From Escherichia coli (GTDB lineage Bacteria; Pseudomonadota; Gammaproteobacteria; Enterobacterales; Enterobacteriaceae): a stretch of DNA of 64,000 nt. Where the stretch lies: assembly GCF_050320075.1 (NCBI RefSeq), contig NZ_CP190018.1; one strand, 5' to 3'. Numbering within the stretch: the stretch's first letter is position 1; each line of letters starts with the position of its first letter. The notes beneath the pieces are model-generated. The model saw nothing but the letters and a program-made list of their open reading frames with translations, was not told the origin of the DNA and did not search any database. The translations under genes were made by a program, and so were the position numbers. This document shows, piece by piece, positions 4,241 through 12,647 of the stretch.

Positions 4241-4792
4241 CTATCTTCTTAGCGATGTCTTTCTGGTATCACATTGGATCGGTGCAATTATTTTTCCTTT
4301 AATACCCATTATGTTAAGAAATTCAGAAACAGCTGTAATCTCATTGTTTTTTTCATTCGTCTTGATCTTCCAAGGAATCTGACTGTGCATTATTGAGAAC
4401 ACACTAATAACGTGAATCGCTCCCTTGCGACGACTCTTGTCATAAGAGTACCGGAGCGTTTTTCCATCAATTGCAATGACGTCTTTATCATCTGAAGAAT
4501 GGCAGTCAAGCATCCAGTTAATAAAGCACTCATAAAATTTTTCAGGACTGATACAGGATACAACTCTGGCAATGGTATCGTGAACAGGAATACCATTATC
4601 AAAATCACCATATTGCTTCAAAAAATCGAGATGTGTTTCCCCAAAATCCTCTATATCTTCCCAGCCTTCTGCACCCGAAATAACGGCACAAATAGTCAAC
4701 AGTAGAATATCCGATAATTTATGTTCCACTTTCCAGGCTTGTCTGTAATCGGGGATAATAGAAATATGTCCCATCAATTTTTTAAGTTCCAT
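4241..4792 (-). pseudogene. H-repeat-associated (ISAs1-family transposase-like) gene remnant, N-terminal ~183 codons only
   Basis: Aligns to the first half of the 378-codon H-rpt frame at 10493..11629, then diverges and stops. Confidence 0.7.
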
Positions 4793-5377: not shown

Positions 5378-5863
5378 TCATATTTTTAATATAGCCCCAT
5401 GAGCTATAGGATCAAAACCTTCTAACCATGAGGTGTTTTTATCGAATAATGCATCTGTTATATTTATATCGCCATATCTATCACATAATAAATTAGCGCC
5501 ACATAAGTCAGCACCAGAAAAATTTGAATCTTTAACGTCTGCATTGCAAAAGGTTGAATTAGTTAATATAGCACCCTCAAAGTTTGCACCTATTGACCTT
5601 GAATTACTAAAGTCACTTCCAGTGAAATCTGAGTTATTAAGAATAGCGTTCATCAGAGCCGCATTGCGAAAGACAGCATTTCTAGTTGATGTATGTTGAA
5701 TCATTACATTTCTTAAATGGGAATTTTCAAATTTCGCCCCATCAAGACAATAACCATTGAGGATGGCACGATGTAGATCCATCCCGCTAAAATCATATCC
5801 AGCAAGAGTGGTACTATCTATATCAAGAAATTTATTGGTTATTAAAAACGCGATTCTTATCAT
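5378..5863 (-). CDS. pentapeptide-repeat protein, putative immunity protein for the adjacent Rhs C-terminal toxin
   Basis: 161 aa with tandem A(D/N)LxG/F-type pentapeptide repeats; its start overlaps the Rhs stop by 4 bp (ATGA); AT-rich. Confidence 0.75.
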
Positions 5864-8800
5864 CTATTCCCCCAATCATCTAACTCCGGAAAAATTTGGC
5901 TAAACGGATATAGTGGTGCCGATAATGGACGCGTACCTGGCCGCTCAGGAGGAAGTTTATCACATAACAGACCCGCAACCATCCTGTGATTACCATTAAC
6001 AATCACATTCCCATCCATATCAACCGGTGGTGCTCCACTACCATCTTCCAGCATTTGTACGTAGTGAGCTACTACGGGTACTGAGACTTTTTGTTGTACT
6101 GTCAACAAGGGACTGTTGGCCACAACCATCCTGATGTTTTCAGGTGTCGTAGGTAAACATTTAGTCTTCTCTTGACTAAAGGTATCATCCCACAATTTTG
6201 TTAAACCCATCACTGCCTGTTGTCTGTATTTATCCATGGGGTCAGCAATCAACCAAGATGGACCTGACTGCTCTATGGAATCTTCTCCGGAGAGACCCAA
6301 CGGATCTATCTTAGTAGTTGGATTCAATGGATACTGATACAGGTTCCATGCACCTCTTAGCCCAATGGGATCCTGGGTGATATACCGCCCCTGCAACGGG
6401 TCATAGTACCGGTTGCGGTTATAGTACAGCCCCGACTCCTCATCATACTGCTGCCCCGGCAGACGGTACGGCTGTTGCAGTTGCTGCGCGCTGGTTTCGC
6501 CCAGCAGGTTTCCCCACTCGTCATACTCCCCCTGCCACGCCGTTTCCCCTTCCGGGCTGATGAGCGCCTGCGGCAGCCCCCGGTGGTCGCAGTGGTAAAG
6601 ATGAAGTGTCCTCTCCGGGATGTATTCCGCCTCCATCTGGTTTTTCATCTGTTCCGCCGTCAGCCCGCACTGCTGAAGCCATGCCTCACTCTCCGCACTC
6701 ACCGCACCCGCGCGCAGTTCCCGCTCCAGCCTCCCCAGCATCACCGACAGCTCCGCCGGTAGCGTCACCCCCGTGTCCTCCTGCAACACCTCCGCCAGAC
6801 TCCGGTGCCGCGCCTTCGCCTGTTCACCATTCTCTGTTTCGATTCTGATGAGCGGCGTGAAGCTCCCCGGCTGGTATACCGTCTGGATACGCGTGGTGCC
6901 GGTCTGTACCGTCGTCAGCCTGTCACCGTCCCACCCGTACCAGGTCTCCTCCGGTTTACGCGACAGCGACATCCACCCCGTCAGGTCACGCTCCCGCCGC
7001 CACACCCGTTTCCCCGTCCGGCGGCCCAGCGGGTCATAGAGGTAGCGGCTCTCCACCTGTGGCTCGCCGTGCTGTATCCGCGTGTAGAACACCAGGCGGT
7101 GCTGGCTGTCGTAATGGTAGTGGTGCGTCCGCTCGTCGTGCATCCGTATCACCCCTTCCGGGATACGGTCCGTCTTCTCCGCCAGCCTGCCGTATTCATC
7201 GTAGCGGTAGACATAGTGCGCATCTTCCGTGATGCGGTTATCCGGCCACGCCGTGAAGGTGCTGTCCGGGTGCAGTTCCGGGTCCGGCAGCCGGTTTCCT
7301 GCCGGGTCCGTCGCATACGGGATATCGATATCCAGGTTCGCCGCCGTGGTGTGAACGCCCGTCAGTCTTCCCGTGTCGCTGTAACGGTACTTCCGGCTCT
7401 CCTGCGGGCCGCTGATGCGCACCAGTTGCCCGTTATCGTTCCACGTATACTCACGGTCAAGCTGCGGAAGGTTCAGGTGCCTGCTCCGGAGCTGCCCTGT
7501 GAGGGTGTACGCCGTGGCCTGTTCGTACCCCGCTGTACTGCCCGCCCCGCCGAAGCTGCGGGCCGTCTCACGGTGCAGCCGGTCCCGCGTGTACTCGACC
7601 AGCGGCGTTCCGCCCAGCTTCATCCCCGCAAGATAACCGCTGCCATACGTCAGCCACTCCACCGGCGGCAGACCGTCCGGCTCCTGACGGGTCGCCAGCC
7701 CCTGTTCGCTGTAGACGTGCCTCGTCTCATGCTCCCACAGCATCTCCCCCGTCTCCTGGTTCTCCACCGTCTGCCGTTCGCCCGTCAGGCGGCCTTTATC
7801 GTCATAGCCGTAGTGGACCGCCACACGGTGGCCTTCGCTCAGGTGGCTGATTTCTGTCAGCCAGCCGTGGTCGTCATACTGCCACTGCTCCGCCGGGTCG
7901 CCGTTCACCGTCCGGTGCGTGATGCGCCCGGCGTCATCGTAGTACCACTGCGTGACCTGCCCCTCATCCTCGCTGCGGATGAGCTGCCCTGTGGCGCTGT
8001 ACCGGTAACGCTGTGTCCTGCCGTCAAAGCCGCGCTGCTCCGTCAGCCTGTCCACCGGGTCATACCGGAACGTGGACTGGCTGCCGTTCTCGTTGGTCAG
8101 CACGGTGATGCGCCCGGCGGCGTCATACTCCATGCTGCGCGTCAGTCCGCCCTGCGTGGTGCTGACGGCCTTTCCCCACGCATCATACTGTGTCTCACTC
8201 CGGCTGCCGTTCGGGGCAATGATAGCGGTGAGGTCGCCTGCGGCGCTGTACTCATAACGGGTTTCACGTCCCTGCGCATCCTTCTGACTGACCAGTTGAC
8301 CACGCGGGTTATAACTGCTGTAAGTGCTGATGCCTTCCTCCCGGTGAACCGCCGTCCTCTGACCGTACCGGTCGTATTCATACCGCGTCGTGTACCCTGA
8401 ACAGTCCGTAAATGCCTGAAGCTGACCGTACCGGTTTCGCGTTATTCTCCGCCTCACCCCGGTTCCGTCTTCCACCGCACAGGGCAGGCCACTGCGGGAA
8501 GAATCATAAAACCAGCGCGTAATGTTACCGTTGCGCGAGACCTCTTCCGCCAGCCTGCCCTGACGGTCATATTTCCGGCTGCGGCGCAGCCCGTCCGGGT
8601 ACGTCACTGACGTCAGTTGCAACTGGTTGTTGTAACCATACCGTACCGTCCTGCCGTCCGGCAGTATCACTGAAGTCAGCTTTCCCGACGCCATATGCAG
8701 CCGGTACTCCGTCCGCCGTCCCGCCGCATCCGTCTGCGCCTTCAGCCTCCCCGCCTCATCATACTCGCTGCGGGTGATGCTCCCGTCCCCATACTCCTTC

Positions 8801-10071
8801 TTCACCACCCGCTTCAGGCCGCCCTCGCCCTCCGTGTACAGCACCTCCCGCCGGTTCAGGCTGTCCGTGATGGTCACGCGGTCCTGCCCGTACTCAAAGC
8901 GGTAGTCCAGCCCCTCCGGGTTGACCTGCTCCGTCACCCGACCGGTATCATCATACCGGTAGCGGCTCTCCGGCCTCCCCGCATAATGGTGCGCCACCAT
9001 CCGCCCGGCGTGCTCCGCATCATAAGTAAACCCGCGCACCTGCGTCCCGCTGCGGTCATACACCGCCCGCAGTTCTCCGCTGGCCGTGTACGTGTAGCGC
9101 GCCAGCGGCGCAGTCGGCAGTTCATCCGGGTATGCCGGGTCGTGTGTCAGCCATACCGCCTCCAGCCGGATACCGTTATCGGCACCGTACTCTGTACCGG
9201 TGGGCAGCGTGTCGGGGAAAAACTGAGAAGAGGAAACAGAACGGGGACTGGCCGGAGAAGATAAAGAAGACTCGCGCTGTTTACGGAAGGCTTTCGCCCG
9301 CTGCGCCTGTGTGGTCAGCGCCAGATGAAAACGGCGGCCCGCGCCGTCCGTCACCCCCGTCACCGCGCCCGCCGCTTCCCCCTCTGCCGCCCGGTGGAAG
9401 GCCAGCGTCCGCCCGAAGCCGTCCACCACGCCCGTCAGCACCCGGTATGCGGGCGGCTCCGGCGGCAGCACCTCGTCCGCCTCCGGCACCCGCTCCGGCC
9501 AGCCGAGTATCCACCACGGCCCCTGAAGGCTGTTTGTCGCCAGGTACACATGCGGGCTTAAGCGGAGACTCTCCGGCAGCACCTGCCAGAGCGCGCTTAG
9601 CGGCTGCGAACTGTGCTGCTCCGCCACCCCGCCCCTTGCCAGCCAGAACGACTCGCTGCGGCTGTAGCTTATCTCGCCGGGAAACAGCGGCTCAAAGTGA
9701 ATGCTCCTGCCGCCACTGTCGTTGAGTATCAGTTCCCGCTCATGAACCTGTAAGCGGATATCGAAGGGCGCTTTCCAGCCGGGACCAAACACCCCCACCG
9801 GCGCGGGTGTCCTGGTCCGGTAGCTGCTGTAGGCGCGGGAAAGAATAAACGGCAACGGGCCGGGCAGCGCAAGATCCGTCTCGCCCGGCAGCACCTTCGC
9901 ACCCAGTAGCGGGTTCACCGGGTTACCCTTCTGCTCCTCCACCGGGCTGTTGGGACACACCGAGCAGGCCACTCCCGTCGGCGCACCTATCAGCACCCCC
10001 GCTGAACCCTGCACAATATCCAGTCCCTTGCGGGTCATATCGCCCTGTCGCGCCGCCGGTTTTCCGCTCAT
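5860..10071 (-). CDS. full-length Rhs family protein: PAAR-like N-terminus, YD-repeat core, DPLGL boundary, variable C-terminal toxin domain
   Basis: 1403 aa; conserved Rhs N-terminus [13 protein letters not shown]; many YD/RYxYD repeats; PxxxxDPLGL motif; GC-rich core. Confidence 0.9.
5863..6291 (-). other. Rhs C-terminal variable toxin domain (~143 aa after DPLGL), family not recognised
   Basis: Sequence after the DPLGL motif is unrelated to the conserved core and lower in GC. Confidence 0.6.
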
Positions 10072-10492
10072 GGTTTATTCCTTAAATTATTTATGGTTTT
10101 ATTCTGAGTGCAATCCATACTGATTCATAACCAGTGAATAAGATTTCCCCGAATAATCTATATAAATTAGCGAAGTCCTCTTCACTAATTAACCGTAAAA
10201 TCCCGTACCAATGAAATATAAAAATAACCACCCACACAAATTTATTGCAAATATTATTTATTATTGTATATACATCATTCACTGAACGTTCTCAAACTGC
10301 ATACCTTAGAACCATCAATTAAAGCCACAACAAAAAAAATCGATTACTTTATGTCGCATGACAAATATGAATTACATATTAATCAACCTTAAAAACAATC
10401 ATCTCTTATAATTAACAGCATACCATGAGAAACACAAAATCAATTTACCATGCATACCAGGAGCATAATTAACCTCTCACCGCAGGGCGAAA

Positions 10493-11629
10493 TCATGAAG
10501 GCCCGCAGCCAGCAAGGATTAGAGAAAGGTATTCATTCTTACGTCCTGCCCGCTTTTGCTTGCGTTTAATACCCGCTTTAAAGCTATTCTCTGCGGTCAG
10601 TAAATTCATCGCGATATGTCGACAAACTGCCAGATTTTCTCCCGCTTCTCCACGAACAATCTGGCATTCATCTTCCCGCATCCCCATATCAAGTCGCCAG
10701 TGCAGTTGATTTTCTACCGACCAGTGTGCTCGTGTTGCTTCCAGGAGTTCTTTCGCCGTAAGCGTCACCGAACTTATGTAGTAGCGAAGAATACACTTCT
10801 CTGATTTCACCGCTGTTTCTCCTTCCTGTCTGCTCGCCAGCACTATTCCTATCGTGCTCAGCTCTGACCATTCATAAGCTAAATCACCCAGAGCGGTTAA
10901 ATCATGGCTCACAATGCAGCATCGTGTATCTTCCCGTCCATGCCCTTTTTCCTGCGTGCTGTAACTGTCATACCTCTCACCCAGCCACATTGTCGGCGAG
11001 TACCCGTTATCAAACGCCTCCGCTAATTTTCCCTGATTTCCTTTCAGCGCCAGCAGGTAACCGGCTTTCTTTTTCAGAATTTCACGGGCGATTATATGCT
11101 GGCAACCCATTGCATCCAGCGTGACCAGACACCCTTTTAATTCCAGCAACTGGAGCCGTTCCGGGATCGCCGTTATCTCATTCGATTTTGCCCCTGTTTT
11201 CACCTGCCCCAAAACCAGACGATTTTCTGCGCTAAAAGCACTGACCCTATGGATCACGGCATTACGTTTCGATTTATCGTAAGTACCCCGTAATGACTTA
11301 CCATCAATCGCCACAACAGAGCCTTCAGACAACGTGTGACAGTCCTTCATCTACTGGATAAAAAGGGGCTGTAATTGTTTTGCTGAAATCATTCCCATCA
11401 CTCGGGCAATCGTGTGATGGGAGGGGGTGCCATTTTCAAAATCACCATACAGGCGTAACCATTCCAGATGCTCCTCACCAAAATCAGCAATTTCTTCCCA
11501 TCCTTCAGCGCCACCGATAATGGCGGTGATCGTCAGAAAAAGGATATCCGCCAGGCTGTAACTGGTTTTCCAGGACTGGCGATAATCGTGAATAATTGAA
11601 ATTTGATCCAAAAGGCTTAGTCCGTTCAT
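10493..11629 (-). pseudogene. H-repeat-associated protein (ISAs1-family transposase-like), 378 codons interrupted by an in-frame TAG at 11351..11353
   Basis: ORFs 11351..11629 and 10493..11350 are contiguous in one frame, separated only by TAG; the fragment at 4241..4792 has W at that position. Confidence 0.7.
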
Positions 11630-11679
11630 GGTGTGCTATCCATCAAAAAGAAAGGATAAGATCACACTGAAATAAGATG

Positions 11680-11810
11680 GTCAAATTGATCGAAAAAAAA
11701 GATCAACATGATGGGTTTTACGATAAAAGTAATGTCGCGATTTAAAAATTCATCATTCACCAAAGTCTTGTGGGGCGCGGGCTTTCATGCTTTTTCCCTG
11801 ATACGCTACC
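11680..11810 (-). repeat. H-rpt element upstream-end repeat, copy B
   Basis: Closely similar to 4940..5065. Confidence 0.6.
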
Positions 11811-12040: not shown

Positions 12041-12647
12041 TTAAATAATGGCATTCCTTTTTAGTATTTCTTGTAACGTTGGTATCGGACATACAGCATC
12101 AGCAATCGCACTGATATTCGCGGCATTATCTTGAAACCATTCATGCCCCGGTCCCCATATGCGCATAACGCAGAGATAAGGGTAGCTGATCGCCAAACGC
12201 ATAAGGTTCAGCAGTGAGCTACGAATTCAACCAGATATAAAACGATTTTCGATATTCAATAACATTCTTCTTTAACTGTTCGGGTGCGTCAGGAGCCCAA
12301 CGCTCAGGGTAATCGGCGAAAGTGAATGTTGGATAGACATTAGCAACCAGCCAGACCAATAGCCGTTGAAACTGCTGACGTTCGGCGCGCCCAACCGGTG
12401 GCGCAAGGTCCGGGCGACGATCGAGAACCATCAATGCAATCGCCGCTGTCTCCGTCATAATCTCGTCATTTTCCAGCGCCAGTGTCGGAATCTGACACAA
12501 CGGGTTCAGGGTTTTCAATAACTCGCGTGAGGTTCCCTCGTGGTCAAAACCACTGACATCAACGAACTGATAAGGAATATCAGCCAGTGTTAGCATCAGC
12601 TCACTGATTGTAGAGCCCCATCCGGGTACGCCATACACCTTAATCAT
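12041..12647 (-). pseudogene. yncG: glutathione S-transferase homologue, disrupted by an in-frame TAG (12219..12221) and a downstream frameshift
   Basis: 142-aa N-terminal GST-like ORF ends at TAG; the GST C-terminal remnant CVMRIWGPGHEWFQDNAANISAIADAV continues in another frame to a stop near 12041. Confidence 0.6.

Follow-up and report, generated by a model that had tools for sequence, protein, structure and literature searches.

The transposase gene of the H-repeat element upstream of rhs, in a 64,000-nucleotide stretch of Escherichia coli DNA (the window), is interrupted by a single in-frame TAG codon, and very probably a nonsense mutation has inactivated the gene here. The element, a single-copy insertion sequence of the ISAs1 family, is an H-repeat distinct from ISEc1 and is carried by a lineage that includes ST38. 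A G-to-A change has turned the TGG codon of the near-invariant Trp93 into TAG. Translation would then end after 92 residues and yield the N-terminal helical domain alone, which by analogy with Tn5 is presumed to bind the ends of the element. The DDE catalytic domain, with D109, D172 and E306, would be left unjoined, no full-length transposase would be made and the element would be immobile. Low-level read-through of the UAG codon, or re-initiation at the adjacent ATG94, may still occur. Public annotation already lists the internal stop, and the gene is a known, ordinary pseudogene of a mobile element.

The split frame and its ancestral codon

A 378-codon transposase frame of the ISAs1 family (H-repeat) runs on the minus strand at 10493..11629 and has the TAG at 11353..11351 as its sole interruption. 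The ORF listing gives this frame as two abutting minus-strand ORFs, 11351..11629 (92 aa plus stop) and 10493..11350 (285 aa plus stop), and its single-frame translation reads ...AKQLQPLFIQ*MKDCHTLSEG..., with one internal stop that is directly followed by an ATG. The ORF coordinates, the frame and the peptide given in the initial annotation all agree with the ORF list and the translation.

After restoration of Trp93, the 378-aa product has two Pfam matches, PF13808 (DDE_Tnp_1_assoc) at residues 8-94 with an E-value of 6e-29 and PF01609 (DDE_Tnp_1) at residues 102-343 with an E-value of 4e-22. The N-terminal ORF (11351..11629, minus strand) holds the helical DDE_Tnp_1_assoc domain, for which the AlphaFold model places helices up to residue 97. 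The C-terminal ORF (10493..11350, minus strand) holds a complete DDE (RNase H-like) catalytic domain, with the catalytic triad and a Tn5-like fold. Because the two halves match consecutive Pfam domains, the two ORFs are one split gene and not a chance pair. Gene callers that report two 'transposase' proteins at this place (92 aa and 279-285 aa) split one pseudogene. The product scores 386.7 bits against the NCBIfam equivalog profile NF033564 (transpos_ISAs1), for which the cut-off is 70, and falls within the ISAs1 family.

A search of 5.8 billion protein clusters delivered 118 aligned homologues that cover position 93, 116 of them full-length. Tryptophan occupies this position in 117 of the 118 and cysteine in the remaining one. 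The four nearest DNA relatives, with 71-76% nucleotide identity and 76-83% protein identity to the window gene, all carry TGG at the position of the TAG, and no indel occurs across the 1137-nt gene. The tryptophan in 117 of 118 homologues and the TGG in all four DNA relatives support a single G-to-A transition, from TGG to TAG, in the codon of a near-invariant residue. The same change had been proposed initially from the ORF at 4241..4792, which does have tryptophan at the aligned place (FINWMLDCH); the nearly uniform tryptophan of the homologues and the TGG of the DNA relatives put the proposal on stronger evidence. Met94 is present in 116 of the 118 homologues, so ATG94 is ancestral and no new start was created.

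The rest of the gene shows little decay. The catalytic residues D109 (11305..11303), D172 (11116..11114) and E306 (10714..10712) are present in the window frame and are invariant in a 55-sequence alignment, giving an intact DDE triad. Conservation reaches at least 95% at 109 columns, and only three other departures (L158R, V195L and E234D) were found there; intact homologues depart at conserved columns with a median of 1 and a 90th percentile of 3. By parsimony, 18 nonsynonymous and 43 synonymous codon changes fall on the window branch as compared to 8 and 47 on the sister branch; the direction of this nonsynonymous excess hints at some relaxed constraint and is not significant (Fisher p = 0.07). 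In the AlphaFold model (mean pLDDT 80) Trp93 is located in helix 83-97, the last helix before the strand 105-112 that bears D109. A sequence search of the PDB retrieved no structure of the ISAs1 family, only chance-level matches to PsaA.

Since there is no frameshift, since the triad and the two inverted repeats are retained and since only three other departures occur at the 109 conserved columns, we infer that the loss is young relative to the pace at which insertion sequences decay. The term 'recent inactivation', used initially, is appropriate as far as the scarcity of other decay is concerned; against it stands that the stop is fixed in all carriers found.

The insertion sequence and the rhs locus

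The transposase frame is part of a complete ISAs1-family insertion sequence of 1318 bp at 10483..11800 (minus strand), the ends of which were set where the homology to four or five relatives in unrelated flanks starts or stops. A 171-nt leader (11800..11630) precedes the 378-codon transposase frame, and the element ends 10 nt beyond the stop codon. The left terminal inverted repeat, CAGGGAAAAAGCATGAAAGCCC, is located at 11779..11800 (minus strand), and the same end was found in the relatives on contigs L002, L003, L005, L006 and L007. The right one, GGGCCTTCATGATTTCGCCCTG, is located at 10483..10504 (minus strand), where the homology of the relatives ends. These 22-nt repeats agree at 18 of 22 positions, and size and repeats are as usual for the ISAs1 family (about 1.2-1.5 kb, with short terminal inverted repeats). 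A promoter scan of the 171-nt leader gave nothing above chance.

A direct target-site duplication of the expected length (about 8-10 bp) was not seen around the window copy, the flanks of which, GGTAGCGTAT and CGGTGAGAGG, differ. The empty site, represented by an artificial flank junction, was found joined in 0 of 5426 complete E. coli genomes. Because an intact relative with 76% protein identity, on contig L006, has a perfect 10-bp target duplication (AGGGAAGCAT, at L006:306-315 and 1635-1644), target duplication is considered a trait of the family, which the window copy would have lost or never have shown. Two further contigs with intact relatives, L002 and L005, begin exactly at the end of the element; these contig breaks, together with the duplication in L006, suggest recently active, multi-copy elements in the metagenome organisms. 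On another metagenome contig with an intact relative, a canonical loxP site (ATAACTTCGTATAGCATACATTATACGAAGTTAT) replaces the left end of the element at L004:1-57, and this assembly is likely to represent chimeric or engineered DNA.

The insertion sequence is situated between a yncG pseudogene and the rhs gene. The latter (5860..10071, minus strand), a toxin gene (rhs core gene, 1403 aa), lies directly downstream of the insertion sequence according to the ORF list and the RefSeq annotation of the identical locus, and it begins 421 nt past the transposase stop on the same strand; the description of the transposase gene as 'upstream of rhs' was right. The element thereby has the hallmark of an H-repeat, an ISAs1-type element adjoining an rhs core, and its position upstream of the core is atypical. 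By the same two sources the gene for the pentapeptide-repeat partner of rhs is located at 5378..5863. Between the insertion sequence and the start of rhs lies an ORF of 63 aa (10091-10282), which corresponds in position to yncH of K-12 and is left unannotated by PGAP in the identical locus.

On the other side of the rhs unit, at 4241..4792 (minus strand), there is a truncated, frameshifted ISEc1-like H-repeat fragment with 52% protein identity to the upstream element, labeled 'frameshifted; incomplete' by PGAP. It corresponds to the truncated ISEc1 copy in the table for strain 28Eco12 (PMC6963479). At this locus the insertion sequence table of that ST38 genome paper contains only the downstream ISEc1 fragment and not the 1318-bp element (PMC6963479). 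The fragment had been taken for a second copy of the upstream element, a view that has to be given up: it is a different, ISEc1-like member of the ISAs1 family and not a paralogous copy. On either side of the rhs unit there is thus a dead ISAs1-family element (10483..11800 and 4241-4792); the two are different and point the same way.

Just upstream of the insertion sequence, yncG (glutathione S-transferase; 12041-12647) is broken into two ORFs, and in the identical RefSeq locus it is annotated as 'frameshifted; internal stop'. It is broken too in E. coli strain 9, which is without the element. In strain 9 (L011:7460-14459) the flank on the yncG side is shared up to the boundary of the insertion sequence, from where an effector island with T6SS PAAR, VgrG and DUF4123 genes replaces the rhs unit. 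These loci show the site downstream of yncG to be variable in its toxin cargo.

In some E. coli assemblies a lambdoid prophage with integrase and excisionase is inserted in the H-repeat, with its junction 1 nt before the TAG; the junction (L009:3264-3290, and L010) equals the window site 11351-11365. The same phage end is normally found beside potC, e.g. in O104:H4, and the H-repeat site resembles the potC core (CCCCTTTTTATCCAGTAGATGAAGGAC versus CCACCTTTTTATTCATAAGGTGGAGCAC). The mutant A of the TAG matches the phage arm, which the ancestral G would not, and improves the match to the potC-type lambdoid attachment core by one base. The H-repeat site is probably a secondary phage attachment site.

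Distribution of the stop codon

A total of 145 complete E. coli genomes contain the element with an identity of at least 99%, in all cases on the chromosome and with a median of one place per genome. The flanks are matched at 99% identity or more in the same 145 genomes, so all copies lie at one locus. Among these carriers the best 40 genomes listed are 100% identical at the locus, and carriers of the 100% identical locus were sequenced independently from humans, dogs, cattle, birds and water. Strains 28Eco12 and 266917_2 are among the carriers, and both belong to ST38 (PMC6963479). RefSeq (PGAP) labels the identical locus 'ISAs1 family transposase', a pseudogene with 'internal stop', e.g. CA897_RS12345 on NZ_CP042899.1.

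When the complete E. coli genomes were searched with an 80-nt probe carrying TGG, all genomes that cover the site (140 of 140) differed from it by exactly one mismatch. A 38-nt pattern in which the variable base was left as N detected TAG in nine of nine metagenome contigs with the site and had no match among the GTDB species representatives. A collection of 15 billion proteins contains both halves, the exact 92-aa one from at least 1000 contigs as well as the 285-aa one. An exact look-up in these 15 billion proteins, with 40 members listed per cluster, did not retrieve the Trp-restored protein. No intact close copy was found in the search of 5.8 billion clusters, where the best full-length match is 83% identical, nor on plasmids (best match 63%), nor among the GTDB species representatives.

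These figures refute the suspicion that the TAG base is a sequencing or assembly error, a doubt that had been raised along with the initial annotation. Such an error would have to recur in many independently sequenced complete genomes that are 100% identical at the locus, as the same single mismatch to the TGG probe in 140 of 140 genomes and as TAG in nine of nine metagenome contigs, with the 92-aa product encoded on at least 1000 contigs. Homologues that also end at this place had been named as a second possible objection, and no true one exists. The only apparent case, protein P0135 with 96 aa, ends there with several substitutions and represents the same locus in poor sequence: contig L008, on which it lies, opens with an Illumina adapter, and its differences from the window are errors of the C>A type only. 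A longer protein of 148 aa (P0124), considered as a stop-free allele, does not carry the tryptophan codon either; it is fused to a prophage that is integrated 1 nt before the TAG.

The TAG is fixed in every carrier found, within an E. coli lineage that includes ST38, and the genomes compared show the stop to predate the common ancestor of all sequenced carriers. An active element would have an uninterrupted transposase; here TAG is found at codon 93, and the element exists as one copy per genome at one locus. This occurrence in all carriers at one locus is consistent with immobility. H-repeat elements have never been observed to transpose in E. coli (PMC3032704), and for this reason one copy and no movement is only weak evidence that it was the TAG that immobilized the element. 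The upstream H-repeat is best described as an immobile relic that has become fixed and that stably marks the E. coli lineage to which the pandemic ST38 clone belongs. As an ordinary lineage-fixed pseudogene, the finding is of little consequence.

Other readings and comparison with known elements

Two further readings would leave the interrupted gene with a function. The gene might have been split into functional products, namely the 92-aa fragment and a 285-aa product re-initiated at ATG94, with either or both serving as inhibitors in trans or as domesticated regulators of ISAs1-type elements; the 92-aa fragment would bind the ends of the element, and the 285-aa product would be without that domain, like the Tn5 inhibitor. 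Several observations are in line with this: the ATG adjoins the TAG, the stop is located in helix 83-97 ahead of the first catalytic strand so that each piece is near to a whole domain, and the fold matches of the model include 1MUH, the Tn5 transposase, and 1B7E, the Tn5 inhibitor with its truncated N-terminus. Possible targets are at hand as well in the several ISEc1 copies of the carrier genomes (PMC6963479). However, Met94 is ancestral (116 of 118 homologues), so the ATG was not created for re-initiation, and no Shine-Dalgarno-like sequence is visible in front of it. The ISEc1 transposase is only 50-52% identical, which makes cross-recognition doubtful, and the carriers are near-identical and offer no handle on selection for either piece. 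We consider this reading very unlikely. Its more specific form, in which a 92-aa end-binding peptide and a truncated, Tn5-Inh-like transposase from ATG94 act in trans from the dead insertion sequence and damp ISAs1/ISEc1 activity in the ST38-type lineage, seems slightly less probable again.

Alternatively, the stop, initially named as a potential read-through site, could be read through in a regulated manner: UAG would be decoded at a useful rate by a suppressor or a near-cognate tRNA, little full-length transposase would be made and transposition would be throttled. The usual background of UAG read-through is about 1e-4 to 1e-3. The downstream frame is fully open with an intact catalytic triad, and the three other departures at conserved columns are not unusual for intact homologues (90th percentile 3). 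On the other hand, a stop at position 93 occurs in none of the 118 homologues and so does not mark a conserved recoding site, the place being taken by Trp in 117 of 118 homologues and by TGG in four of four DNA relatives. A stimulatory RNA structure is not apparent either, as the fold of the 141 nt around the stop is no more stable than that of shuffles (z = -0.29). The 64,000-nt window contains no tRNA gene. Suppressor alleles were searched at glnV and tyrT: the supF-type tyrT allele is present in 0 of 5425 genomes, and the supE-type glnV allele was detected in 155 genomes; among these, each of the 60 listed is a K-12 laboratory strain (4.5-4.8 Mb) without the element. The detection of the supE-type allele in K-12 laboratory strains served as the positive control of this search. 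The occurrence of one copy at one locus in 145 genomes also speaks against this reading. These observations lend the suggestion no support, and we regard regulated read-through as very improbable; loss of function by a nonsense mutation is the preferred reading.

With the pseudogenes that PGAP annotates as transposases with an 'internal stop', the preferred reading agrees without any difference, the window locus being that very object. The fold predicted for the transposase is closest to that of the Tn5 transposase and its inhibitor Inh (PDB 1MUH and 1B7E; E 8e-10, TM 0.53-0.57), whereas sequence identity to them is 10-14%. A product starting from Met94 would, like Tn5 Inh, be without the N-terminal domain. 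For Tn5 Inh, a dedicated internal start with a promoter of its own is used; any downstream product in the present case is putative and would be an accident of the nonsense mutation.

Among insertion sequences, the element resembles ISEc1, the H-rpt of Rhs elements with K-12 proteins of the YdcC/YbfD/YhhI type, in its length of about 1.3 kb, in its single 378-aa transposase with PF13808, PF01609 and NF033564, in terminal inverted repeats that begin with CAGGG and in its location next to an rhs gene. It differs from ISEc1 in that the transposase is 50-52% identical in protein, in that it lies upstream of the rhs core where H-rpt is usually found downstream, and in the nonsense codon. Its nearest intact relatives (83% protein identity, 76% DNA identity) are known from metagenomes only. 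Within the ISAs1 family the element is a distinct member, with about 50% identity to ISEc1, and as such may be of interest to curators of insertion sequence catalogues.
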